A stretch of 63,839 nt of DNA, counting the filler, from Collodictyon triciliatum (taxonomy: Eukaryota): the NCBI GenBank assembly GCA_043381765.1. It is 14 parts of 14 records of this genome, joined end to end, with 100 filler letters (N's around TTAATTAATTAA, not from the genome) between each part and the next. Parts side by side here need not be neighbours in the genome. Positions count along the whole stretch, not along the records: positions 50,510 to 54,993 come from JBHJMP010006044.1; 13 more parts are not named here. The stretch is one strand, 5' to 3'. The notes under the pieces were generated by a model. That model did not search any database. It was not told the origin of the DNA and saw only the letters and a program-made list of their open reading frames with translations. This document shows positions 148-59,821 of this stretch, piece after piece. Numbering within the stretch: the stretch's first letter is position 1; every line of letters begins with the position of its first letter. A program made the translations under genes and the position numbers.

Positions 148-3100
148 CTAAGAATCCATCAGTAAAATAAACAACCGTTCCCTGGTGGGTGCAGAATGAG
201 CTCGGCGCGTAGATACGTGCTTTGGTACGTCTACTTCATGAACATTGTTATGTCCTTTGGATAGTATTACTCCTGGCGCGTCTCCTGCCTTTGCGTCGAT
301 AATTGGCTGGGTGCGTCTAGAGTTGGATGCCAAATCCCGCCTCTTTGGGACGGCACTACTCACAAAGCTTTCATTCGTAGGTGGCTTTATTTCCCCCCGA
401 TGTTGGGAAATCAGTAAATGGAATTGAAGAAAAGAATAAAAAGAGTAGTTTAGGAAGCACTCAAATTGACATAATCCACTTGATCAGAATGGTTTTCTTA
501 AATGAAAATCTATCGAGTTGGACACATTATTTCTACAAACTTTTTTTATTTGCTTGACCGATTTCCCTTGCAGCACAAATGATCTAAGGGAGGGGTTTAG
601 TGCGAGTGTTACCAGAGAAACGTAGGATTGCATCAGTTGCCCTTTACAAAGGCCAAAAAAAAAAAAATTGACGATGAAATTGGATAAAAAATTCGATTGA
701 ATTCAATACACACACATATATATATATTGACAAAAGCATAGAGTATCTGTATAATCGGAGCTAGACCTAGGTGTTCTATGGACCGTCCTAGGAGATATAT
801 TTCTGGCGCTGGTAAATTTTGATTGTTCCTTGGAATCTAAGATTGGGCGACAGGGGCAGCTTGGAGTCAAGGGTGGTTTTGGGCGGGTAGTCTTAGGTTT
901 GGTATCCTGATCTCTCGGCTGTAAGATTGTTCCTGGTGAAGGGGGGATTTCTTGGATTTCGAACACTTTTTTCATATCAAGTAAGGGTAGCTGAGGGACA
1001 GACGTGTAGCGTTTCTCGAGGGAAACTGGAATGTCAGAGGAATCTAGATCTGATTCGCTACCGAGCTCCTCCTAATTGATCGTATGTTAGAATTGCACCA
1101 TTTTACTTCAGCCCTTATAATTTCCGGATATCAAGCGCGAAAAGATTGCTTACAAGGCGAACAATCGAAGAAAAAAAAAGCAGCTTTAAATTTCTAAACA
1201 CTTACAATTTGTTCGCTGATAGCATCGATGATATCTTTAGTCTTGTAGGCAAAGTCACGCTCAGCATATCTGTGATTTATCCGGGCTAGTATCGGTATCA
1301 AGGTTACATTATAAAGTAAATATGCTGTAGTATATCAAGGTGATACGAGTTTACATACTTATTATTCATTTGAAATAGTCAATTTGTTACGATAAATGAT
1401 AATGATAATATGAGTTATGAAAATTAAAATATCAAAATTAAAAACAACATATTGATAGAAAAAAGAAAAGAAAAGAAAAGAAAAGAAAAGAAAAGAAAAG
1501 AAAAGAAAAGAAAAGAAAAGAAAAGAAAAGAAAAGAAAAGAAAAGAAAAGAAAAAGAAAAAGAAAAATAAAAAAGAAAAGAAAAAGGCCTGAATGCATAA
1601 GATTTGTATATCTATATATTTGGGATGCAATTACCAGATAGAACTGGATTTTTGAGTAGACTAATAACACCAACAAGACCCTCCCGGTCGTATTGAAGAG
1701 ATAAGGGAGGAATTAAGTTATTGGCATTCAAACTCAGTAATGTGAGTTGACTGAGTCGACAAAGGGTTATTGGGAGATTTGGAATTTTGTTAAAGTTGAA
1801 GCTCAAGGAGCTCAGCTTGGAACACTATTTTTGATGTTATTTTGTTGGATAGAGTAATAATTAGCTCGAGTACGATAAACATAACAAATGTCAGTAAAAT
1901 GAACAATTTTATGTCATATTTGAAAATAAATAAACAAATAAATAAAATATATCGATCGAAAAATAAACCTTTCCAATATCGCCTGGTAAATTTGAAAGCA
2001 CATTGGAGGAGCCAGATATATACTCTATTGATTCCCAACTACCAATACCGTTTGGAAGAGATGAAATAAAGTTGTGGTCGAATATAAATGTTTTCATATT
2101 GATAAAATGGCTGCAAGAGTCAGGGAGCGATGATATGCTGTTGTAGGATATGTCCAGGTGTATAATATTTGAAAGGCGTTGACACCCTTCGCTGAGGGAC
2201 TCGAGATAATTGTGAGCTAGTACAAGAGATGTGAGGCTTGTGAGAGATGAAAAATCTCTGGAAATAAATATCAGCTGATTTTTTGACAGGTCTAGCGTCC
2301 CGAGACGGGCTAAATTTGTAAAAAATGACGGGAGACCGTTGAGCCGGTTTTGATGCAACCACAGATCTCTGAGGCCTGTCAGTCTGGTAACTGCAGAGGG
2401 AATTACGTCGATTTTTATTGAAAGATAGGTTCAGCCGAGTGAGATGGGTGAATGAGCTTATTCCTGGTGGTATCACGAGCAATCCAGACTCGCTATTTCC
2501 CTAAATTGAGAATTTCCTTTGTATAAAAATTCACTTCATTATGTGTATTAATCTTTAAAGATGAGGCGGACACAGGCTGGAAAATGAGAATGGTTGAGGT
2601 TATTTCTTTCTTTCTTTCTTCTTTTTTTTTAAATAAAAAACAGACGCCTCATGGATGGAAATGAGCAATAAATTTAAAATTAAAAAGCGAGCATGAAGCA
2701 AATTGTAAAGAATAACAATATATAATTAAAAATAGATAAACATGATTCGCGTGGGTCTATTTTCAAAGGTTCATAGACCGGTTGCAGACCTGTAGATCAA
2801 GAGTTCCAGTTAAAAGAGATGCTTCTTCTTCCAATCGGTCATGGGCACGGTTTAGGGCTGCATTAAAAAGGTCAGGGGCAAAGTCTGCCCGAAGGTCGAT
2901 GCTAGACGTCTTTCTACCAATATCTTTGATTTCTGTGGATTTATGAAGTGCTCTATTGGGTAGTTTCCCCTGAAAGCTCCGAGATGACCGGGATTCACTC
3001 TTGGAGGAAACCAGAGATAAATGTGATTCCGAATCTCGACCTTGCGAGTCTACCTCTGCAGCCTCGGGTAATGGGTGTGATTCTTCCGATTCAGATTTTT

Positions 3101-4495: not shown

Positions 4496-4595
4496 NNNNN
4501 NNNNNNNNNNNNNNNNNNNNNNNNNNNNNNNNNNNNNNNTTAATTAATTAANNNNNNNNNNNNNNNNNNNNNNNNNNNNNNNNNNNNNNNNNNNN
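4496..4595. other. Artificial scaffold linker N-run/TTAATTAATTAA/N-run (first of 13)
   Basis: The same 100-nt linker with stops in all six frames also lies at about 9091, 13686, 18279, 22873, 27466, 32058, 36647, 41237, 45824, 50410, 54994 and 59575. Spacing is about 4.59 kb and slowly decreases. Confidence 0.98.
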
Positions 4596-9090: not shown

Positions 9091-9452
9091 NNNNNNNNNN
9101 NNNNNNNNNNNNNNNNNNNNNNNNNNNNNNNNNNTTAATTAATTAANNNNNNNNNNNNNNNNNNNNNNNNNNNNNNNNNNNNNNNNNNNNCAGGTTCACG
9201 AAGGCAACGCGGCCACCATCAGAGAAATCTCATTCAAAGAAGACGGCTCGTACATCACAACGCCAGGCTCCACCGCATTCCGCACACAAGATGCACAGCC
9301 AACCACAGCCGACCTGAATAACAAAGGAAAATGGCGCTCACGCAGACCAATCTCATACGACATTCCGCCGCCATTCTTTTTCCGCCTCAAAAGAGACATA
9401 TTGATGCTATTCATTAAAATCATTTTTATCTAATTCTTTATTTTTTTCCTCG

Positions 9453-12400
9453 CTATGGTTCGGTGAGAATATGTCTCTGCCTATTTTCTATACGCCTGGT
9501 TTCTTCCCTTTTTTTGTAAAACCAAATGGAAGCGCACAAAACCAAAAATCCAACGAGAGACTGAACGATTACCGACACCAAGAAACCATTCTTTGCTTCT
9601 CCATAATTCATATCCCTCGATTCAGAGTTGATCAATATGAATTTTCGCAGGGCTGTGATGGTTCGTGTTGGGCAAGTGCATGCGGTTACATTCTGTTGCA
9701 GTGTGTTAGTATTGCATATTGTGTTGTTCCACATTCCAGTACTTTTTTCCCATCCGACGCATTCAATCAAGTCTAAAAGAAAAAATGGTATTATCTCGCA
9801 GCCAATGAACAACATGAATTTTTTAAGGAATCTTCAAAGCTAAATAATATTATCCATAAGTGATTTTTCCCTACCAAACGAGCTATTGTATTCAACTCTT
9901 GTTGAAAGCGTGATATTGTATGAATATGGGGTTGTATAGTCATCCTGATGTTTCGCAGTTGCAAGGATGATTTTGGATACCAAGGTGCTGCAAAAAGTTA
10001 TTTTAATGCGTAAAACTATTGGTATGAAACGGGAAGCAAACTAACCTGGTATCATTTTGTGACAATATGGGAACCAGACCATCATTTATTATGATTAAGG
10101 CAAGAGGAATATTCTTTGTCGTATTTGAGGATGCCTTGACCGAAATATTGAATGCCCCGGTGTTTATAGAAGCATAAAGATCCTCGCCCAGCTCAGCTGT
10201 GGGGTTAACAATTAAGATGCATACTTTGTAAGTTGAAACAAGCAGAGTTAATACATATGTCTCATAATTAATCAAACCATTTTTTAAATTGACATCAAAG
10301 TTGGCATTTAATTCAAGTTCATTCTGGTTTATGGAAAGCTGTGAAGCTGATATTTCTTGTATGGATGCAATATTTTGTAATGCCGATGAGATTATTGATG
10401 TGATTATTGGTGTTGAGACCGAATTAGATCTCATGACTCCTTTTTCGATTATTATTGAGAGTGTTTCATCCAAGGTCCCAGTTAACATCTAATGAAAAAT
10501 GAAGAATTTTATTTCAAACTACGCAAAACACATGAAATTCTTATTATTACCAATATAGTTTCAGAGGACACGCTGTATCCTGCCTTTTTTAATTCATTTG
10601 CAAATTCGATAGTATTTGTTGAAAATTTAGTGATGCTTTCGACCATACGCAAGTCTTCTCTGAGTATTCGAAGACTTCTATACGTAACCTGCCCAGAACT
10701 TTGCAAAATAACATCAGTAACAAAAACGAAGTCTAACGAATATGATGTATCCGCGAAAAGCACAGTTGCAATATCCTTCATCTTCATCCATACCACATGA
10801 TCAGAAGAGTCACCTTGATAATCATCTATTGATAAGGTGTTACTCTCATTTAAATTTTTTAATGAAAGCTTGACATATAAAACAAAGAAGAGAAAATATT
10901 ACGGTAAACTAATGAGACTAAAAAAAAAAAGAGGAAAAGAGGAAAAGAGGAAAAGAGGGGAAAGAGGGGAAAGAGGGAAAAAGAGCAGAGAGAAAAGAGA
11001 AAAGAGAAAAGAAAAAGAAAAAAGAAAACGAAAACCAAAAAGAAGACGAAAAGAGAAAAAGAAAAAGAAAAAGAAAAAGAAAAAGAAAAAGAAAAAGAAA
11101 AAGAAAAAGAAAAAGAAAAAGAAAAAAGAAAAAGAAAAAGAAAAAAGAAAAAGAAAAAGAAAAAGAAAAAGAAAAAGAAAAAGAAAAAGAAAAAGAAAAA
11201 GAAAAAAGAAAAAGAAAAAGAAAAAAGAAAAAGAAAAAAGAAAATGAAAAATGAAAAAGAAAACGAAAACGAAAACGAAAAAGAAAAAGAAAAATGAAAA
11301 GAAAAAGAAAAAGGAAATGAAAATGAAACCTATGCAGGACAAAATCATGGACGCTGTTTCAATTTGAACGTATGTGTCCCTCGATAACTTCGTGATATTG
11401 TATTCTGGCTCGATCTTAGACAAGGCATCACTAATATTTTTTGGTTCAAACACACGAACTCTACATGAAATCTCTGATAAAGCCCCATACTTGTTGATGG
11501 CAATAGCAAAAACTGTTATATTCCCAACTGGAAGGTATGTGGAAACTTTCGGATCGAAAGAGGATTTTATCAATATTTTAGGCCTTTTGCCTCCCTTTGA
11601 ATACTTGAATTCAAATCTTAATGGTAATGAATCCTGGCTCGACGACCAACGTGACGTTTTGAAAACAAATTTTGTCTCCAGAGATGACCCTTCTTTCGGG
11701 TCGCAGCTTAAAATCCCCCCAATAGGAGGAAGAACAGGACTCACGACAGTTTCAGAGTAGCCGTAACGAGAGCTCTCATTATCAGGAGAAATCAACGTGA
11801 CATTGACAGCGACGACGTAATTTAATCCCCCAATGAAGTAGTCTGGAAGAAAACTTACAATATCTTGATTAAATGAAAAGATGGTATTTGACGTCTTGAT
11901 GATTTTGATACCATCGATATACCATGTGTATTGGAGGGGAAGGGAGGAAACCACGAGTGGCCTCACTTTTAGTTGAAGGGAAGCATACGGATTGAAAAAT
12001 TTCAAGTTTTCGTTCCCTTCTATTTCCAAGGGTATAGGGTCTCTATCAACTATGTTTATCCAGCATGTTTCAAAAGCATTTCTGGAGTCTTTTCTTGCTT
12101 TTATAGTAAAAAAGTATTTACCTATATTCAGTGAGTTTGGTATTATGAACAAAGAATCATTTTTCACTTGAAATTTATTGCATGATTCGCCTTTAGTATA
12201 TTGACATGACCATTCATAAGTAGGAATTTCATCGACGTTAGCAGAGTCCATGACCCTAACCGCTATCTGGTGGAGCTTATTAATTCCAACATCCTGGTTC
12301 GAACCAGTTATCAGCAGTGATATACCTCCTGGTTTAATTGAGATTAATGTATGTGCCTGCATTATTTCTGAATGCCCCAAATTAGCCACTTGGACCCCCA

Positions 12401-13315
12401 ATTTCATGTCTTGATTCAAAAAAAGGCTGAGTGTATTTGGTTGAAAGATAATTAGCTTCTGCGATGTTTCTATATCCGACAGTCCGATCAAAGATAGAGA
12501 CATATTTCTTGGATATTCGATGAACCATTGTATGGATATGGGCAGATAAGTCCCATTACATGTTACACTTTCTACTGAAACGCTAAATGTATTAGTTCTG
12601 GAAGGGTCAACAACTCTGGGATTTGAAATAGGAAACTCGATTTTAGGTGGATTTCCATGATGCTTTGTTATTATTTTCCTGGTCGTATCGTTTTGGTGCA
12701 GAAAGTTCATTACAGTTAATTCGATGACGATAGGAACATTAAATGGTATAGATAGAAACAAAGCACTTCCAGCTTCGACCACAATCTCAGAAGCAGTGAT
12801 TTGAAGAAGAGCTTTTTCAAGTTCATGAAGCCCAGTATGATTTCCTGTATTAACTACTTTCCATCGATAAGATAGCTCAAAAGCTCCACTCATCGATAAT
12901 GAGCCGTCCAGTTTCAGATCTGTACATTCTCCAAAATCTGAAGATAAAAGGAATGCTAATGGTTTGAGCGCAACCAAGGAAGTGAGAACCAACGAATTTT
13001 GTATGACTGAATAATTAAGAGAGTTGTAAGAGTTGCCCTGCGCACAAATAATAGAGGAATCTAAGAAATGTATTTCAGTGCCCAAGGGAACTGGATATTG
13101 AGGTCGGACTTTTAAGGTACTCGATGCTGACCACCAGCAAAAAGCTCTGATGCCAAATGAGTCCAAAGTGGCTGATGTGAAGTAATCAGAGCAATCCCCT
13201 ATCTGATTGAGAAGGACATGATATGAAGCGTTGAATCTTATTGATATGTCTGGGAGAGTATCAACATACGAGGCATAGACCGGTTCTGCATAGCACAATT
13301 TTTTCATCAATACAT
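9453..13315 (-). CDS. PKD1-like REJ-domain protein with a GPS-like motif and one visible TM helix (5' part missing)
   Basis: A large exon (13315 to about 11330) has REJ hallmarks (LDGSLS..LSYRW; PPIGG.L..DPKEG..LETKF.F....W; YLPVG.ITVFAIAINKYGA). Four further GT-AG exons lead to ECVGWEKSTGMWNNTICNTNTLQQNVTACTC and a hydrophobic segment FLVSVIVQSLVGFLVLCASIWFY-KKR. Confidence 0.8.
11050..11325. repeat. (GAAAAA)n purine-rich intronic repeat
   Basis: Direct reading. A similar tract lies at 48085-48425, and a pyrimidine-strand version at 26280-26573. Confidence 0.93.
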
Positions 13316-13330
13316 CTGGTAAAGAAAAAG

Positions 13331-13685
13331 ATTGGGATTGAGACTGAGACTGAGACTGAGACTGAGATTGAGATTGAGACTGGGACTGGGACTGGGACTG
13401 GGATTGAGATTGGGATTGGGATTGGGATTGGGATTGGGATTGGGATTGAGATTGAGATTGGGATTTGGATTGGAATTGAGATTGGGATTGAGACTGAGAC
13501 TGAGATTGGGATTGGGATTGGGATTGGGATTGAGATTGAGATTGAGATTGAGACTGGGATTGAGATTGGGATTGGGATTGAGTTTGAGATTGAGACTGAG
13601 ACTGAGACTGAGACTGAGACTGAGACTGAGACTGAGACTGAGACTGAGACTGAGACTGAGACTGAGACTGAGACTGAGACTGAGA
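13331..13685. repeat. Compound hexamer repeat (GAGACT/GAGATT/GGGATT/GGGACT)n
   Basis: Direct reading. Intronic, running into the scaffold end. Confidence 0.95.
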
Positions 13686-27565: not shown

Positions 27566-28914
27566 TCTGTACCAGATTCACCAGTCTTATCAAGAAATTG
27601 CACGACAATGCAACAGCGAGGGTACTCACGGCACACGGACCTACAGATGCAATTCAAAGACAGAGCGGGGTGTATCAAGGCTGCCCACTTGCACCACTGC
27701 TCTTCAACTTTGTCGCTGACTGCATTGCAAACCACTTCCGAAACGAAAACAAGGTATGCAACCAACTGCTACTTCAATATGCAGACGACACAGCTTTCAT
27801 ATTGCGGTCTCCAGAAGGCGCTATCCTGGCAAATAAGTGCATGCAAGAATACACACGAGCTGTCGGCGGGAAAATCAACTACGACAAGACAGATGGAATT
27901 CTTTTTGGGTTTCAGGATGGACTTATGCTTCCAGGAAACATTGTGTGGAAGCCACCTTCACATCCACTCAAGTATCTTGGCATCATCTTCGGTCCACAAT
28001 CGGATAGCAAATGGACAAGCTTGGTTGAAGACATCAAGTCAAAAATATCAGTGTGGGGCAACTTTCATCTCTCGGACGTGGGGAAAGTAAGGTTGTGGAA
28101 CCAAGTGATGCTGTCGACCCTTATCTACAACATGATAGGCACTTTGCTGAATCCCCAAAGGCTGAAGGAGCTGAGAGACATCTGCCACAACTTCATCATT
28201 ACGGAGAATCAAAATTAAAAAAAACTGGAAGCAAGCCCGTATACCTCAGTTACTCCCGAAACACCGCGCCCTACTGCTCAATATCTCCAACAGAGAGAGC
28301 TGTGGATAGGTGCGCGTGTAGTCCATGCAGCAACGACCTCTCCAGATTGCACCATGTGCCATAGTGGAGTTGACTCTATCGAACACACATTTGTTAAGTG
28401 CTCTCTTGCTCAAAAAGTGGCAGAGTCTACCCACATGATGCTCTCTGAGCTTGATTATGCTCCCAACCAACTCAGCGCGTCAGACATCCTGTTTGGTCTG
28501 CAATAATAAATGACCCACAACTCTAGAATACTCGGGACAGTCACAAGGGGACATTTTCTGTGGCCCTTCTGGAGTGTGCGTGCATTCTATCGCTCTAATG
28601 ATTCGCCTGAACGAGAAATCAATGTATCCAGGCTTGAAAGCCTCGTGCAATACAGCTTCCTGAACAGCCTGCTGAAACGCGCCCGCATTCTTCGCTACTC
28701 TGACCGCAAACGATGAGAGATGTGGGAATGTGTCGTGCGATATCTCCCACAGCATATCCAACCTCTGCTACCCACACAACCCATCAACCAGTTAGGTCGC
28801 CCATCTGACCAACTCGCTATCACTGATTTCTTCCCCTTGATTTCATCATCATTACCAATCAGCATCACACAAAAAGGGAACCCGTATACCCCTCTTCTGA
28901 TTGTAATCCACTGA
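27566..28914 (+). mobile_element. Non-LTR retrotransposon (L1/Tx1-like) ORF2 fragment: RT domain and C-terminal CCHC (zf-RVT-like) region, internally deleted and frameshifted
   Basis: SGVYQGCPLAPLLFN, LQYADDT, KINYDKT and LKYLGI (27598-28218). CTMCHSGVDSIEHTFVKC at about 28349-28402 is a C-x2-C-x8-H-x4-C motif. Stops and frameshifts lie between the blocks. Confidence 0.9.
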
Positions 28915-33619: not shown

Positions 33620-35642
33620 ATGCTTAGGGAACCCCAACTGGAGTCACATGTATCGGAGCGGGCTGACAAACGCGAGCTTTTTGGAGGAGCCGACAAGAAA
33701 CTACGCCTTGCTCAGATGCGCATTTTTTGGGTCACCTGGGCTTCTTACTTTGCTGTATACCTAACCAGAAAGCCGATTTCAGTTACAAAATCTACGCTAC
33801 AGGACGATTTGGAGCTCTCGTCCGCTACACTGGCCCTGTTTGATGTGGGCTATCTGTCCACCTATGCCATGGGTCAGTTCTTTAATGGTTGGCTGGCTGA
33901 TCGTCTTGGAGCCAGGATGATACTCGCTACAGGTAAGTAGTTTCGCCCTGTCAACCCGCATAATAACATAAAAAAGAAGAGATTATGCCTTGATATATAA
34001 TAGTGTGATATAACCCTCTTGAACTTAAAATCGAATAGAGGAAAAAAAAATCTTGAAAATAGTGTATTAGAATATCACTTTGAATCGAATAAAGGGAAAA
34101 AAATAGTGTATTAGAGTAGAATAAATATATCAAAATGCATTTTCGACGTCGAAAATTAGCAAACTCAAACACACATACACATCTCGATAAGATATCTTCT
34201 TCCTCTTCATACTTATGTATGGATATTATTACAAGTATTATTGAAGCCCTATATTAAAAACCTTGCACCACAGCCTAGTAATTTGTTTTGTTCTCATGTG
34301 CTGCTTACAAAAAACATTTATCCATGCCTGTGGCTTTTACTAAATCCATTTGCGTCTTATTATCTGAAATAGATCTAATGGGTTCAGGGTTTTGCTGCAT
34401 AACCTTTTCCTTCATGAAAAATCCATGGGGTTTGGGAATAATCTGGTCATTGAATGGTATATTTCAATCTGCAGCCTGGCCAGGATGTATCAAGGCTATC
34501 ACACCATGGTTTGCATCTCGTGACAGGGGATTCATGATGGGCTGGTGGAGTACATGCTACTCAGTTAGTTCCATTATTTTCTGTTTGACAGAGCTATATA
34601 TTTGCTTCCTTCATATCTTTTCTAGAATCCTTACCTCTTAGTTTTATCTTTGTCATATTATTTTAATGGTTGGAAACACAAGGTATCAAATATTCAAATA
34701 CTTTGTCACTTATACACGAACTATCTCTTTTAGCTCGGTGGGATAGTCGGAACATTGCTATCTACGTCCTTCCTTAGTATTCAAGGATGGGAAAGCGCAT
34801 TTCTTTACCCTGGAATTATAGTGCTTCTGGTTGGTCTCACTGCTCGTCTATTTTTGACAAACCATCCATCTGATATTGGCCTTGTATCACCGTATGATAA
34901 CGAAACTGGTAAAGAACAAATCATAGACCGGGATGTCAAGGAGGATACTCCTATTTTAAGGGACTCCGTCGTGTCAACATCTTCATTACCAGGCGATGGT
35001 ATAAATACGGAAAAAAACGAGCGATCGGATACTTCTTTTTTAACTGCCATACGCTTGCCAGGGGTACTCGACATAAGCATCGCCTACTTTTGTGTCAAGC
35101 TAATCGTATCATCTCTGTTCTTTTGGCTGCCTTACTATCTCGACGAAGAAGTTGGGTACTCGTCTACGACTGCTGGATATGTCTCTGCTATGCTCGATGT
35201 GGGCGGTTCTCTTGGTAGCGTAGTAACTGGGTATGTGTCTGATAGGTGGTTTAAAAGCCGTCGCATTCTCGTGGTGGTTCCCTGTTTTATAATGTCAGCC
35301 GCTTTTATGTGGGTCTACCTTTTGATTGGAAAAGAGGGGGTAGCCTTTAACTCTATCGTACTATGTCTGGTTGGATTTTTCATATTTGGCCCTGACACAC
35401 TACTAGCTGGTGCCGCAGCTCAGGACATTGGTGGTCGGTCATCAGCAACAGTTGCTGGATTGATAAATGGAATTGGTTCGTTGGGTGCAATTCTTCAGGG
35501 CCCAGTTACAAGTTTCACATCAAACCAGTACGGATGGCAATCCCTATTCTATCTATTGATGATAATGTGCGGTGCTTGCTGTTTTTCTCTCACAAGAATG
35601 TTGCTGATTGATATTCGAAAATACCGAATGCTCCTACCATAA
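33620..35642 (+). CDS. MFS organophosphate:Pi antiporter (OPA / SLC37 / GlpT-UhpC family), exons 33620-33932, 34373-34563, 34734-35642
   Basis: YFAVYLTRKPIS, YAMGQFFNGWLADRLGAR, NGIFQSAAWPGC, RGFMMGWWSTC, FFWLPYYL, GYVSDR, GFFIFGPD and VAGLINGIGSLGAILQG. Splice phases are consistent. Confidence 0.93.
34017..34115 (+). mobile_element. Two adjacent ultra-short LINE 3'-tail insertions with TSDs in MFS intron 1
   Basis: TCTTGAA[CTTAAAATCGAATAGAGGAAAAAAAAA]TCTTGAA (34017-34057) and AAAATAGTGTATTAGA[ATATCACTTTGAATCGAATAAAGGGAAA]AAAATAGTGTATTAGA (34056-34115). Confidence 0.8.
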
Positions 35643-36864: not shown

Positions 36865-37140
36865 GAGAAACAAGCAGAAAAAGAGAACGAACTGAAAACA
36901 ATCTAAAAAGAAAGCAGTTTCGATGAGACAAAAATGGATAAAAGAAACATTACAAGGGTGGACAGCAAGGAAAAGTCAAAAGAGCCGGGCGAATTGAGGG
37001 CGCAGCTCCGCGGTGAACTCGCACTCAAGATATACGTGTTTGGCAAAAAAGCATCACTGAACAAAAGAGCAGCGATCAAATTCCACCAGCAGAAACAGAC
37101 GAACGAACGGACAGACGGACAGACAGACAGCAGCACAGTA

Positions 37141-39702
37141 ATGGCGGAGGAAACTGCGGCAGAGCAACACAAGGCGCAGGCCGATGGGCCGATTGTCTTT
37201 GGGACGTGTTCGTGGACCGATCCGTCCTTGCTTGCGTGTGCAAAGTTTTACCCGCCTGGCTCGAGAAAGTCGCCCGAGGACCTCTTGGCATTTTATGCAA
37301 CGCAGTTGCCTTGTGTCGAGGTTGACATGACTACCTATTCCATCCCTCAACCGCATCGATGCGCCCAGGTGTGTCATTGAAAAAAAAAAATGCAACCTTT
37401 GATGTATATAATCATTGGTTTGATTTGGTTCGCCTTGAAATACAATTCTTGTTTGTGCGTGAGGTGTGCCGAGCCAAGAAAGATATCAGGCTAGGATAAA
37501 GTGCCTATTTTCTGGCCATTTAATTTTTCCACGGGGTTTCAATTGATGTTACTCTTTAAATATCATTTTAATACTGTTTTACCTAGTGGGCAAAGGTTTG
37601 CATCATCTCCCAGTTCTGTGTGGCAGCGGAAATACTGTGCAAATAATAACCTTATATATCATTCAAATCGCCCTCCTTTTTCGCAAAAATGTAGTCAACT
37701 TAATCACCTATTTTCTTTTACAAGACTTTTTAACTTTTTCTGATATCTATTTACCTTCCATAGGTTACCCCGAAGAATTTTGTAATTCATGTTAAGGTTA
37801 GCTTTTATTCATTTTGATACGTTTCCCTCAAAGCTTAACATTACATTGAACTCACCGCCATATCCCTGAATATACTTACTAAACATAAGGGAAAAAAAAA
37901 ACAACGGTAGGCATTTTGCATGTTTACCCAACGCTCAGCCGACCTTGCATCCCTACCTTATTCTATTCGAGCAGAGCTATGCGCAAAGAACACAAAGTTC
38001 TCATCTGTTATTCTGGAAGATGGGCAGGAATCCCGTGCACAATCACGTGTCTCCATCAGTGATTTGGGTGATCTTCTTCCTCAGCTTTGGAGAAGTTTCA
38101 ATGAAGCTATTCTCCCCATTTACGAGGCAGGAAAACTTGGCCTCGTCCTCTTTCAGTTTATGGAGTCATTTCGTTGCACATCCCACAATATCGATTACGT
38201 GATGCAATGCCTCGGCTATTTGGACCCGCGCTTCCAGTTTGCTATCGAATTCAGAAGTGATACTTGGGTCTCGTTGTCGCCAGCCCCGCTGTACATATCT
38301 AAAAAAATCGATGATACTGTTCGACTTCACCACACCCGAATTCGAAGCGCCGCATCACAAGCACTTATATCACCTCCTGATGTGAAAGACTCGAGTCTTG
38401 GATGTGGATTCATTCGGGCATCTGAACTACAGAAGAAGCGAACTCCGACTTACGCAGCTGAAACCGTGCGCTGGCTTCGTGAACTGAATGTTGTCTTGGT
38501 CACAGTAGATGATATGCGGATGAGTGACGATGGTAGCATGGTCAAACTCCCGATTTTTTTGGATTGCACACATCCTGAAATATCTTATATTCGGCAAGTT
38601 ATATTTCTTTTCTCTTTCTGCTCTCTGTTGCGTCGAGTCTGGATATGATAATCAAGATTTTAAGAGCTTACGAACAACAACATATTGGACCAACCCTCTC
38701 AATAAATCATGTCGTATATATTGATACTTATTTACTCGTTTCTCTTTTCAGCGTACATAGGAGAGTCGGACACGAAAGATTGCTCTCGGAGAGCGAGATG
38801 TGTGCATGGGCAGGCATGATTCCAAAGTACTTGGAAACGAACCACCATACAAAGAAGCTATTTTTTCTATGGAATACAAACTATGAAGACCAAAGGTTCT
38901 CTGCTCCCCTTCTTTTGTTTTACTTTTTTGGCTTTCCTTTCGCTTGAAATCTTATTCCCTTTATCGCAACCCGCTCACATCGAGCAGGCAAGCTACTACT
39001 CATCCATGCGGATCATCTCTAACGCCAACTACACAAAACCATCCTCATCACCGTGATCATACCCTAACAACCCTAGCATGGTGAACATATCACGATTCTC
39101 GTCTCTGATCCAGAGCCTCTTCTGCAAGTACAAGCCGCTCATTCCAACCACAGCAACGCCTGGCGAAACTCACCCTATCCACGTAAGAACGTCTTAAGCG
39201 CTTGCTCGCCATCCCCTTCCAACATCAAAGAGTGGACGATAGTCATGGCATGCTCACACTTATTCGATAGCGTCCGCTGATCTACGACTGGAAGGGAGCC
39301 CTGATGGCTGAAAAGTCCGCCAAGAAAGGCACAATCTTCCACTTCCTCAACTCCCCGACAAAGCCCATGCAAGGAAACCCGACCACCCCCAAAGACCAGG
39401 AGCCGATCAGCGCCACCTGCAGCACACAAACTCAGTTCCCCAGGCCCCACGAGGGTCAAAGCGAGGCTGCGGATGAATCTGAGGAAGCGGCCGTGCAAAA
39501 AGCCCCTCTGCACAATCGGTCTGTCCTCGCGTTGCTTCAGCAGGCCCAGAACCAGAGTCCAAAGTCACAGGGAATCCCACTTGGCGGATCGCTTGCTATG
39601 GAGCAGTTTGCCCACGCGGCCCACAGATCGCCAAAGAAGAAGCCGAGACTGGAGCCCGGGCAGAAGCCTTTGGCGTTTGTGATCACCCCGTCCTTCGCAT
39701 AG
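37141..39702 (+). CDS. DUF72 (YecE-like TIM-barrel) protein, 7 exons including a 9-nt microexon and a GC-AG intron
   Basis: IVFGTCSW..FYP..LAFYATQLPCVEVDMTTYSIP...Q|WAK|VTPKNFVIHVK|AFCMFTQ...KLGLVLFQF...FAIEFRSDTW...YIR|VHRR. Exons 37141-37368, 37587-37595, 37764-37796, 37911-38593, 38752-38895, 39077-39182, 39271-39702. Confidence 0.85.
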
Positions 39703-50409: not shown

Positions 50410-50509
50410 NNNNNNNNNNNNNNNNNNNNNNNNNNNNNNNNNNNNNNNNNNNNTTAATTAATTAANNNNNNNNNNNNNNNNNNNNNNNNNNNNNNNNNNN
50501 NNNNNNNNN

Positions 50510-50559
<50 letters not shown>

Positions 50560-50619
50560 ATCACAAATTAATACAGCAATAAAATATAAAAAAATCTGTA
50601 ATATCGCTAATAATTTTAC

Positions 50620-53600
50620 CTGTAAATAAGTTGCTATGTAAAAATAGAGTCAAAACTTTTGGAATCCAGCTGAAGTTTGTTACATTTCCTAAAAAAAAAA
50701 ATGACATAACTGAAAAAAGAAAAATTGTCTTTACAAAAGAATTTACCCAGTTCTTACCTTCAAGCAAATTTCCAAACAAGAATATTGTCGCTACTCCTGG
50801 TATTTGACTAAAATCTGGAACTGAACCTATATACGTGAAAAGTGAGTCCATAGGATTACGATGGGTTCTTGTCTAAAATCAATAACATAATTAAATATAA
50901 TACCTCTTAATTTATTGTTGTGTAGATACAGAGATCTTATTTCTCTTATGTTTGAAAAGTCTGGAATTGTACCTGTCGTGAATGAAATCAATTTTGTTTA
51001 TATTGTAACTAGTCGTTTTATATTAGGCTTTATCTATATTTTGGTGCTCAAACAAATTCTCACCAATAAGTTGATTATTAGATAAGTCCAGATAATTGAT
51101 AAAAGCTATTCCAGTAAAATCTGGTATGGTTCCTGGAAGTTCAAAAGTATTTTAATTTACATCTTAAAGATTTACTCAAACTAAAATGCAAAAAAATGAA
51201 TGTTTTATATTTTTATCATACTCACCACTTAGTTGATTGCCAGATATAACAGCATTATATATTCTGGGTATATTCCGAAAATTCGGTACTGTGCCTAAAA
51301 ATTAGTAGTTTTGGGAAATGTTTACCATGGACGTGAAAATATTATATGTGTTTCTTATCAAAAGAAAAACTATTTTTTGTTACCAGTTAGCTTATTGCTG
51401 TATACGTCTAAGTAAAATAGATCGTTGATGCTGCTGAAGTCTGGAATACTTCCTTGAATAAATTAAGCCATGCTGAGTTGGATACTAAATAAATCTAGGC
51501 ATATTAATTAAAAAGAAAATACCAGCGAAATCATTGCTAGATATCGACAGGCCCGAAAGATTCGGCAAGGAATTAAAGTCTGGAATGGTACCTGTCATAC
51601 GTAATCAGACATTTAAAATTCAGAAAAATTGTGTTATCTTTTTATCTGTTATTTGCTCGACTTCTTGTATTTATAGGGGAAAACATCACCGCATCAAAAT
51701 ATCGTGATTGTATGTGATTTGTATCATAATATTAAAATAAACCGAAAGTATGGTATTTTAAGATACATACGATTCAAGTTAATTTACTGGTATTTACCTC
51801 TAAGCTTGTTATCTGATACATCTATAATTGAGGCAAATGGAATTCCTTTGAAGTTTGGCATGGTTCCTAACAATATTTCCGAGGATTTTAATGACATGGT
51901 ATAGTTCCTGTAATAAGTTAGTATATAAATTATGTAAAATACAGAAAATTAAATAATTATACCTAAAAGTTGATTCCCTTTTACAGAAATTTCATACACT
52001 ATTGGTGCGTTCATAAAGTCTGGTATTGTGCCTACAATTTTTGGAATGACGGTTGTTTAAAATATTTTATTATGATATGAATTGAAATTTATATCGTGTC
52101 TACGAAATCATTAATTCCCTTGGTTTTTTTATACTTACAACCAGTTTTATCTCTCATTTACACATGAAAAAGGACGTGAATGGTATGCTTACCAATTAAT
52201 TGGTTATTATGGAGGTTAATTACGAAAATTTTTGGTGTACAAACGAAATCAGATATAGTGCCTAGAGATTAAAATGATCCCAATCTCGTAAGTTTCTCAA
52301 TAAATTTATAGGTTGAAGTGTATTATCACACTATTCGATTGTATTTAAATTGTGGTGACATAATTACCATTTAATTTGTTGTTGGAAAGAGATATGCCAA
52401 TTATGTATGGAGTATTGCAAAAGTCTGGTATTGTTCCTATAATATTAAGCTTAAAAATAATCCTGCCTGCCAATATTTTATACATTTATCAACTTGTTAG
52501 ATGTTAAATATAATATATTTGGTATAAGTAGGCAGATAGATTTATTTTTAAGTAAATAACCTCCTAACTGGTTACCAGATAAAATAAGGGCACCTATGTC
52601 GGGTATATTACTGAAATTCGGAACAGTTCCTGTAAATAGTTTACTCTGTGTGAAAAGTCTTTTTGATTAAATATTTTCGATACTACAAGATAAAATATAA
52701 CCCCCATTGATTAGACATGTTTAAATGTGTATTTGATTAACACAGCAGTACCGATGAATCGGTTATAATCCAAAAATAGCTCAACTATGCTAGGTATTCC
52801 TTTAAAATTGGGTATTTTTCCTTTTAATCGAATAAAGAGGAAATTCAGTTATTGTTACCCTTATCAAACAAAATAAATATTGTTCAAATATATTTCATGC
52901 ACAATATACTCAGAATGTAGTAAAGGGTGCACATATTATTTTTTAAAAGAAATTCTCTTTATTAAATTTTTCATTATATAATTCTTGTAGTAATATGCGC
53001 AAACCTGTCAGCAAGTTATCACTTAATTCAATTCCATAGATATTCGGGATGTTAAAATCAGGAATTGTGCCTGATGTTATTGATTGGTGTTAATTACATG
53101 ATTAAAAAGGATAATTGGATACTTTCTGAAATATTGGGTAACTACGCATCTTTAATTTTTATTTCAACCTGTAAGTTTGTTAGAATGTAATCTAATTTCT
53201 CTCACGTTTGGAAATAAATCAATATCAAAAAAATTTCCTATTTCATCAATAAAATTTCTTTTAGTAAAGTGCAGTATGGTATATGCATAAATTGCGCAAT
53301 AAAGACTCAACAAACCATCAATTGCAGTCTCATAAATCATGATTGCCTGGATGTTTGGCAGATACTTAAAATTTGGCAGAGTTCCTGTTTATTATTTTAT
53401 GAATGTATTTTAGGATCATAAGCCTATTTCACAATTAAGATAAAGAGAAGAATAAAAGACCTGTTAATTTTTCACTTTCTCCGATGGCCAAATGAGTGAC
53501 TTGAGTCAATCCCGAAAAGTTGGGAATAGTTCCCCTCAATTTATTACCAGCTATATTTATATACTGAATAATAGGCCACCCTTGAAAGTTGGGTATTGTT

Positions 53601-54561
53601 CCTGATAGTTGATTCAAATATATACTGAAGTAAATGAGATTTGGATTGAGAATGTTTGCCAATTTTCCATAAATTTCATTTTCAGTCAAGTCGATATTCA
53701 TCAAGAAAGGCAATTTTTCCAGAATGGAGGATATGGTTTTGATATCTCCTGATAGAAAATTATCGTCCATCCATAATCCAACAACTGGGCATGTATCCTC
53801 CTAAATTTATTTTCATTCATCTATCTATTTATATATTTTTCATATCATTATTAATCTATAATATGATATACAGTATTTCATAGATAATAAGAAAAAGATA
53901 GCCAGTGGTTTATAACAAAATATTAATCAAACCATGTATTCATCTTCTGTGCACTCTGTGTGGCACTCAATCCCAAACCATTCACAGATACCTGTATCTT
54001 TGTCCTTCCATCCACTATTTTCATACCAATTATCTCCATCTAAGGAGTCGTAGAGTTGTGAGAGAAGCTCATACTGACTATATGAAGTCTTTGGTTTAAT
54101 GTTTTGTGAGTTGAATAGTAAGGATGGCTTAGTTTCTTGAGAGATGCTATAGCCTATATTTAAATTATTATTTTTTTAGTGATTTGTGCAGGAATTTTGG
54201 TGTCCAATATTATGTCCTCGTCGTATTTTTCGACTTTATCTTCAGTATTTATTGGATATTCATCTATACCGACTTCATCCAAAGAAATCATTTTTGGATT
54301 CTCTATCTTCCCTAAAGAATTATCTGGACATTGCTCTTCATAATAATTTAGAAGATATTGGAGTGCATCCCCAGATTTCATTGATAAGAGCTCTTGCCGA
54401 GACAACTGGCAGCCGATTCTGAATTTGAACACATGGAGGTCTCATCAAGGAACTGACGAATGCGATAGTGCAAATTATCAATATTTGTGTTACCTTTCAG
54501 AACATGCAGCTGTCGAGATGAACGAAATAATTATCAAGAAAGTGATTATTATCTGATTCAT
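50620..54561 (-). CDS. Secreted or surface LRR protein: signal peptide, LRR N-terminal cap, then at least 16 single-LRR exons (3' end missing)
   Basis: Signal peptide MNQIIITFLIIISFISTAACSE; cap LYDSLDGDNWYENSGW...CEWFGIEC; a multi-LRR exon 53800-53461; then 69-nt (one 66-nt) phase-1 exons GTIPDF...LxxNxLxG between 53384 and 50620, all GT-AG. Confidence 0.9.
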
Positions 54562-54863
54562 ATCTAGGTTATTTTTGCTTCGCTCTGAAAGAAACCTTTT
54601 TGAGTGCCACTCTCTATGTACAAATAAAAGGTTTACAAATTCTTTTAAATCAATGACGTGAAATTTTACTTTTAATCGAATAAATGAAAAAATAGTGAAA
54701 ATTTTCATATTCTAGAAGTCGCATGGAACGAAAGGAACCTTGAAACAGCTGTAACATTATGCTGCTTTGATCGGCTTATGTATAGCTTGGTATCAACTGG
54801 TAAAAATTTTTCCATTCGACTATGGTAGATAAACATAGGTTGCTGGGAGACTTTGGTGGTTGC

Positions 54864-54993
54864 TTTGTTTCTTTGTTTCTTTGTTTCTTTGTTTCTTTTG
54901 TTTCTTTTGTTTCTTTTGTTTCTTTTGTTTCTTTTGTTTCTTTTGTTTCTTTTGTTTCTTTTGTTTCTTTTGTTTCTTTTGTTTCTTTTGTTT
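54864..54993. repeat. (TTTTGTTTC)n repeat
   Basis: Direct reading. A related (TTTTTTG)n tract lies at 55094-55190. Confidence 0.95.
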
Positions 54994-59574: not shown

Positions 59575-59821
59575 NNNNNNNNNNNNNNNNNNNNNNNNNN
59601 NNNNNNNNNNNNNNNNNNTTAATTAATTAANNNNNNNNNNNNNNNNNNNNNNNNNNNNNNNNNNNNNNNNNNNNTTATTCTTTTTTTATTCTTTTTTTAT
59701 TCTTTTTTATTCTTTTTTTATTCTTTTTTTATTCTTTTTTATTCTTTTTTATTCTTTCATGCGTTACCATTTGTTTTTAATCTTAATTTTCTGGTATTTT
59801 TGTTTTGATTTCTTACATAGA

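Follow-up and report, generated by a model that had tools for sequence, protein, structure and literature searches.

A protist gene with at least sixteen consecutive exons that each encode one plant-type LRR

Genes with one LRR per exon

The placement of a single LRR on each exon is a layout already known, to which the gene described here adds another case. It occurs in plant ERECTA-type receptors; our literature search found no paper on 72-bp LRR exons in ERECTA. In the brown alga Ectocarpus, as the first-pass annotation of the present DNA had pointed out, the layout is found in the ROCO genes, where every LRR has a 72-nt exon to itself, beginning at the G of G-x-x-P (PMC3341825). Dynamic shuffling of these exons has been argued from two kinds of sign, namely spare or inactivated LRR exons within introns and on the non-coding strand, and LRR domains that have recombined between recent paralogues (PMC3341825). 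The Ectocarpus LRR-kinase genes have the same layout with no trace of shuffling, as far as the available part of that paper describes them, and the layout alone therefore does not imply shuffling. Such exons, called type I, are described from ROCO genes, from some LRR-kinases and from other LRR loci (Zambounis et al. 2012, PMC3341825; Teng et al. 2024, PMC11378527). Nucleotides 3–71 of the 72-nt exon encode 23 residues, which leaves the final nucleotide to form the split codon with nucleotides 1 and 2 of the following exon (PMC11378527). Here and below, the papers given by PMC number are drawn on for those parts of their texts that were available.

Comparable arrangements are described elsewhere among eukaryotes. 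LRR genes of Tetrahymena are built from tandem 90-bp exons with uniform phase 2 introns and are interpreted as products of clonal exon expansion (Xiong et al. 2019, PMC6564038). Vertebrate gonadotropin receptors have in-phase exons of similar size that encode one LRR each, an arrangement seen as a mark of exon duplication (cited in PMC11378527). In the plant SERK genes the first LRR has an exon of its own, exon 3, and an isoform without that exon is reported (PMC3061892). Literature searches found nothing in print on an array of 69-bp phase-1 LRR exons, which is the arrangement analysed here.

Exon structure and relatives of the gene

The gene lies on the minus strand within a window of 63,839 nt, by which we mean the whole stretch of DNA that was analysed and to which all coordinates refer. 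Sixteen consecutive exons proposed in the first-pass annotation (Table 1) are each preceded by AG and followed by GT; 15 of them are 69 nt long, one is 66 nt long and none has 72 nt. Since a G stands at both ends of every one of the 16, each junction restores a G/GN glycine codon, split in the standard phase 1. This codon had been described throughout as the glycine of GTIP, which is correct for the phase-1 glycine in all 16 exons and incorrect for the motif in array exons 2 (G-N-F-F) and 16 (G-N-V-T). With 16 of 16 exons symmetric, in phase 1 and divisible by three in length, any exon could be skipped, duplicated or swapped in frame, as had been claimed. The joined frame of the array is open over 367 codons. 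Sixteen is a lower bound for the exon count, as the piece of sequence that carries the gene ends at 50510 inside a TAA-type (trinucleotide) microsatellite. The 15 array introns measure 69–206 nt and have a G+C content of 22–29%, as against 25–45% in the array exons, the exon value being the higher in most cases.

Computed over the 15 array exons of 69 nt, the column profile has a period of 23 residues and the consensus L-x-x-L-x-L-x-x-N-x-L-x-G-x-I-P-D/N-F-x-x-I-P-x. Column entropy is low (0–1.8 bits) at G1, I/V3, P4, D/N5, F6, I9, P10, I/V12, I/L15, L17, N20 and L22, intermediate (2.2–2.3 bits) at repeat positions 18, 19 and 21, and high (2.7–3.4 bits) at positions 7, 8, 11, 13, 14, 16 and 23. 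The contrast between a conserved scaffold and differing exposed residues, which had been noticed by inspection with several peptides quoted as examples, is thus reproduced by the low and high column entropies, and the quoted peptides are present. Both strands of the whole window were scanned mechanically for in-frame, LRR-like exons of 63–75 nt with AG and GT at their bounds, which gave 15 matches, all of them array exons. Array exon 2, which has no G-x-I-P start, was missed, and no LRR-like exon of 63–75 nt was found outside the array on either strand of the window. The motif AGGNACNATNCC matches nine times in the window, compared with 0.30 matches expected, and none of 100 shuffles reached nine. 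All nine matches are in the LRR gene, seven at exon starts, one within exon 4 and one within intron 8.

Upstream of the array, four further exons could be modelled (Table 1). Exon 1 consists of 22 full codons and 2 nt, with a hydrophobic stretch after the ATG at 54561 that resembles a signal peptide as judged by eye. The junction between exons 2 and 3 was chosen by frame continuity, two open frames being joined through a Gly codon. Exon 3 matches PF08263 (LRRNT_2) with 24.8 bits, above the curated cut-off of 20.7 (E=2.7e-5; 53933-54112, minus strand). The order of a signal peptide and an LRR cap ahead of the array, proposed earlier, accords with the signal-peptide-like start and with a cap domain that scores above its cut-off. 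On these two features the protein looks extracellular. Exon 4 passes the Pfam cut-off for LRR_1 (21.7 bits against 20.6), with LRR_8 and LRR_4 below theirs, and two of its LRRs begin with G-T-I-P-N-F as in the array. The complete model of 20 exons, four upstream and 16 in the array, is open over 626 codons with no stops and has GT-AG ends on all 19 introns; 626 codons is a lower bound, as the 3' end of the gene is cut off and the model covers its 5' part only.

Among proteins of solved structure, the closest in sequence are ectodomains of plant LRR receptor-kinases, headed by FLS2 (E=7.8e-28) and followed by MIK2, by an entry listed as "Receptor-like protein kinase 5", which we take to be HAESA, and by ERL1/2. 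Homologues were sought with exon 4 alone (113 aa) as the query. Of 491 candidates from a word-indexed search, 123 proteins reached E<=0.001, with identities of 23–45%, and an exhaustive HMMER search found 17,773 proteins at E<=0.001, the best 150 of which are 29–46% identical to the query. These relatives are generic long LRR proteins, many of them metagenomic and probably bacterial. Of nine of these matches and the single match of the REJ-domain ORF described below, four bear a source name, and none of the names is informative. Protein and metagenome searches with the exon-4 query found no orthologue or paralogue. Four metagenome loci match exon 4, at 39% identity. One of the four was considered as an orthologue and rejected, since it carries an uninterrupted, bacterial-style ORF of 1,764 codons.

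The window is not one continuous locus. It consists of 14 pieces with 13 linkers between them, and the piece lengths drop almost steadily from 4,495 to 4,481 nt, apart from a last piece of 4,165 nt that is cut by the window end. Microsatellites occur at the ends of most pieces. What the window strings together are thus small scaffolds, unplaced and ordered by size. The LRR gene is alone on a piece of 4,484 nt (50510-54993), whose G+C content of 29.7% is the lowest among all pieces, and the neighbouring pieces provide no genomic context for it. Elsewhere in the window there are uninterrupted ORFs of 928 and 727 codons, so the intron-per-repeat layout is a property of the LRR gene and not of the whole assembly. 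An Rfam search of the window returned no match.

Three further observations concern the window and its other pieces. An MFS transporter ORF has its best matches, at 54% and 69% identity, in the transcriptome of Diphylleia rotans (EukProt), and its next matches are bacterial at about 40% identity. This one gene, from a piece other than that of the LRR gene, makes a protist source plausible, perhaps with kinship to the collodictyonids. A REJ-domain ORF on another piece has one match, a EukProt entry at 23% identity. Small shares of sequence words, of 0.05–0.09, were found in seven sequencing runs (six freshwater and one subsurface metagenome) and are uninformative on habitat or expression.

Table 1. 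Features of the LRR gene and its surroundings, in window coordinates. A slash within a donor sequence marks the splice point.
Feature	Position	Strand	Basis or remark
Exon 1, ATG and hydrophobic signal-peptide-like N-terminus	54494..54561	-	donor AG/GTAACA
Exon 2 of the gene model, acidic non-repeat spacer	54270..54418	-	3' boundary inferred; donor G/GTATAG
Exon 3, LRRNT_2 N-terminal cap	53933..54153	-	PF08263 match
Exon 4, about 4.5 LRRs without introns between them	53461..53800	-	Pfam, structure relatives, exon HMM
Array, 16 single-LRR exons and 15 introns	50620..53384	-	AG/GT bounds, phase-1 Gly junctions
Array exons 1–4	53384-53316, 53237-53169, 53070-53005 (66 nt), 52820-52752	-
Array exons 5–8	52629-52561, 52436-52368, 52261-52193, 52031-51963	-
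Array exons 9–12	51866-51798, 51591-51523, 51452-51384, 51294-51226	-
Array exons 13–16	51132-51064, 50972-50904, 50826-50758, 50688-50620	-
LRR-exon-start relic in intron 8	51867..51909	-	AGGNACNATNCC pattern match
Start of the intron after array exon 16, into TAA-type microsatellite	50510..50619	-	gene cut here
Artificial linker (44 N, TTAATTAATTAA, 44 N)	50410..50509	.	joins two unrelated pieces; one of 13 such linkers

Divergence of the repeats and traces of rearrangement

Pairwise identity between array exons has a mean of 49.7% and a maximum of 65%. First, second and third codon positions are 49%, 64% and 36% identical, and as composition alone would give 30% at third positions, silent sites are nearly saturated. 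A column-permutation test found both the maximum (P=0.23) and the spread (P=0.28) of pairwise identity to be ordinary, and within-column permutation of residues identified no pair of array exons closer than the shared consensus predicts. Signals of a recent duplication are absent from the array. The introns have no mutual similarity, in keeping with the impression gained from inspection, their Smith-Waterman scores averaging 16.4 as against 15.8 for shuffles. A single pair, introns 9 and 12, scored 37, above the shuffled maximum of 28.

These figures, together with the gene model, bear on the idea that the locus is a dead or unexpressed fragment, a functionless pseudogene or remnant of assembly, which we consider very improbable. 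The gene is truncated by the end of its piece and the homologues of exon 4 are at most 46% identical to it (best 150 of 17,773), as might be expected of such a fragment, but the gene is truncated where the assembly breaks off in a microsatellite. Moreover, although the piece has only 30% G+C, the 20 exons keep a frame of 626 codons open, GT-AG ends are kept on 19 of 19 introns, conservation is far higher at second codon positions (64%) than at third positions (36%) and exon G+C exceeds intron G+C in most cases, all of which speak against a dead fragment.

How the repeats came to have one intron each is a separate matter. The repeats might have multiplied without introns, which were then inserted independently at a proto-splice-like ...G/G... 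site before G-x-I-P. The introns without common sequence would fit such parallel gain, as would exon 4, which holds LRRs of the array type with no introns between them. The exon HMM matches inside exon 4 at 53601-53538 and 53532-53495, and an internal repeat junction at 53592-53603 resembles a spliced exon-exon joint. Intron loss from the 5' repeats would explain exon 4 equally well, however, and duplication of one exon-intron unit with later divergence is much more parsimonious than 16 consecutive gains at exactly one codon position. Published arrays of this kind are also read as clonal exon expansions in the available parts of their descriptions (PMC6564038, PMC3341825), and parallel intron gain is on balance unlikely.

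A nucleotide HMM built from 15 array exons, whose own matches are therefore found by construction, was used to look for further copies. It returned 28 rows, 17 of them at E<0.001, which correspond to the 16 array exons and one site in exon 4. At E<0.2 neither the introns nor the plus strand gave a spare LRR exon. The sole trace of one at the locus lies in intron 8 and is a relic of the start of an LRR exon; of the nine pattern matches, the 12-nt match at 51898-51909 alone falls inside an intron. Intron 8 presents a TACTAAC box, then CAG and, over 11 nt, a copy of the beginning of an LRR exon; if this CAG served as an acceptor, an in-frame TAA would follow after 5 codons. From the relic it follows that the array has undergone a rearrangement or partial duplication at least once.

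The first-pass annotation had gone further and suggested a combinatorial recognition system, in which the symmetric exons act as cassettes and regulated skipping, or frequent genomic shuffling within a gene family, produces many different LRR surfaces. Every array exon is frame-neutral, the variable positions are the ones predicted to be exposed and the relic in intron 8 records some past rearrangement, all of which are compatible with this proposal. Precedents can be cited as well, since brown-algal genes with the same exon register are reported to have splice variants that differ in LRR content (available part of PMC11378527) and the SERK isoform that omits one LRR exon is in frame (available part of PMC3061892). 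The locus itself does not bear the proposal out: save for the 12-nt relic there are no spare or reverse-strand LRR exons, no exon pair is closer than the consensus predicts and the introns are unrelated. Variability of exposed residues between repeats is, furthermore, typical of every LRR protein and no sign of diversification, and the introns are short, at 69–206 nt. Short introns accompany intron-defined splicing, in which retention is commoner than exon skipping. A combinatorial receptor is thus improbable here. Decidedly doubtful is the wider proposition that a little-sampled freshwater protist lineage outside plants and stramenopiles, possibly near the collodictyonids, builds extracellular LRRNT_2-capped receptors from arrays of frame-neutral 69-nt LRR exons, and that these cassettes are skipped, or exchanged among members of the family, and so vary the binding surface.

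Comparison and significance

We favour, with a probability of about 0.6, the explanation, drawn from a single locus, that an extracellular LRR protein of plant type is encoded here by an old and stable gene, whose repeats grew by tandem duplication of an exon-intron unit and are spliced constitutively. The sequence would represent the 5' part of a gene for a secreted or cell-surface protein with an LRR ectodomain of the plant-specific type, in which a signal-peptide-like start is followed by a short acidic spacer, then by an LRRNT_2 cap and then by 20 or more LRRs of 23 residues. The last 16 of these, each on one symmetric phase-1 exon, would have arisen by old tandem duplication of a single exon-plus-intron unit, and the exon copies appear to have diverged to saturation since then. 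From that divergence we infer that the array is now stable and most likely spliced constitutively. The predicted product is one long solenoid, and the variable residues of its concave face (the x of x-x-L-x-L-x-x) may form a ligand-binding surface.

The brown-algal type I arrays are among the described systems closest to this gene, as far as the available parts of PMC3341825 and PMC11378527 describe them. Common to both are one LRR per exon, an exon start at the G of G-x-x-P, a uniform intron phase and LRRs of the plant-specific type, and the brown-algal arrays, with 13–17 exons, are similar in size to the present array of at least 16. The junction codon is split in the same 1+2 manner; PMC11378527 labels this 'phase 2', whereas the usual name is phase 1. 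The register is equal and the present exons, at 69 nt (23 residues), are one codon shorter than the brown-algal exons of 72 nt. The proteins differ in their domains, as brown-algal ROCO proteins are described with ROC-COR domains, while the present protein combines a signal-peptide-like start with an LRRNT_2 cap, and both argue for an extracellular protein and not a ROCO. The intronic and reverse-strand LRR exons of the ROCO type are absent from the present locus, save for the 12-nt relic, and in this it resembles the Ectocarpus LRR-kinase class in the form that the accessible text gives it.

With the ectodomains of plant LRR-RK, RLP and PGIP type the gene has in common the LRRNT_2 cap and the repeat L-x-x-L-x-L-x-x-N-x-L-x-G-x-I-P. 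Plant LRRs are usually 24 residues long, whereas the present repeat has 23, and exon 4 is at most 46% identical to any of the best 150 of 17,773 matches. SERK exon 3, one LRR on one exon, is like the present array exons (available part of PMC3061892), whereas for the plant LRR-RLKs covered by the available part of PMC10588794 each LRR domain is said to be encoded by a single exon. The Tetrahymena genes, as presented in the accessible part of PMC6564038, are likewise protist LRR genes with tandem exons of one length and one intron phase. Their exons, however, are of 90 bp, in phase 2 and of another repeat type, as against 69 nt and phase 1 here, and they number thousands of genes, young species-specific expansions among them, where the present locus has one old-looking array. 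Gonadotropin receptors, in the account available from PMC11378527, carry the animal 'typical' LRR type on a GPCR with few exons, in contrast to the plant-type LRRs and at least 16 exons of the present gene.

One-LRR-per-exon arrays are the raw material for receptor diversification by exon shuffling or splicing, as has been proposed for some protists. The present locus is probably an example of repeat growth by exon duplication and gives no evidence for a diversity-generating system. If the cassette reading were true, it would provide an independent cell-surface counterpart of the idea that brown-algal ROCO genes are immune receptors subject to exon shuffling, and interest in the gene would rise if the genome showed a gene family with exchanged exons or if cDNA revealed many isoforms. 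What the locus adds is the intron position of brown-algal arrays in an LRR protein of plant type, apparently extracellular, from a protist that is unrelated and has been little sampled. This shared position would mean either that the exon-intron unit is very old or that the G/G before G-x-I-P is a recurrent site of introns.

Composition of the window

The window chains scaffolds of ~4.5 kb through short linkers in an order nearly sorted by falling length. Pieces lying side by side here are not adjacent in the genome, and a gene that reaches the end of a piece is cut there.

Features located in the window
Feature	Position	Strand	Details
Linkers (n=13)	4496-4595, 9091-9190, ... 59575-59674		44 N, TTAATTAATTAA, 44 N
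Second LRR ORF	1912-2430	-	LRR_8 matches; intron-free across 173 codons
REJ-domain ORF	10902-13685	-	928 codons, uninterrupted; Pfam REJ, 88 bits
WD40-repeat ORF	20578-22758	+	727 codons, uninterrupted; 7 matched stretches, WD40 family
Reverse-transcriptase fragment	27568-28215	+	RVT_1
MFS sugar-phosphate-type transporter ORF	34734-35639	+	Pfam MFS_1
DUF72 ORFs (n=2)	36907-37377 and 37911-38645	+	each matches a different part of DUF72
Intron 12	51225-51133		LRR gene
Intron 9	51797-51592		LRR gene
TACTAAC box, CAG and 11-nt copy of LRR-exon start	51867-51909	-	inside intron 8, LRR gene

Introns of the LRR gene

Within intron 8 of the LRR gene (numbered along its array of 16 single-LRR exons), the TACTAAC box and CAG are accompanied by a copy of the LRR-exon start, the whole arrangement preceding the intron's true acceptor by 41 nt. 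It is either what remains of an exon that was lost or duplicated in part, or a decoy acceptor whose use would result in a premature stop. Introns 9 and 12 share one local alignment scoring 37, as compared with a maximum of 28 for shuffled introns.

Other reading frames in the window

The second LRR ORF is unrelated to the LRR gene with the exon array. The WD40 ORF, in contrast to that gene, contains no introns. The REJ ORF extends into an SQ-type repeat at the end of its piece, and the one relative found for it is distant (23% identity). The RVT_1 fragment is probably a retroelement remnant. The two DUF72 ORFs, whose piece has the highest G+C in the window (43.8%), may belong to a single gene that an intron or a frameshift divides. 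The top matches to the MFS transporter ORF are transcripts of Diphylleia rotans (54-69% identity), followed by proteins from Myxococcota at ~40% identity. The transporter may be a bacterial-type gene common to collodictyonids.
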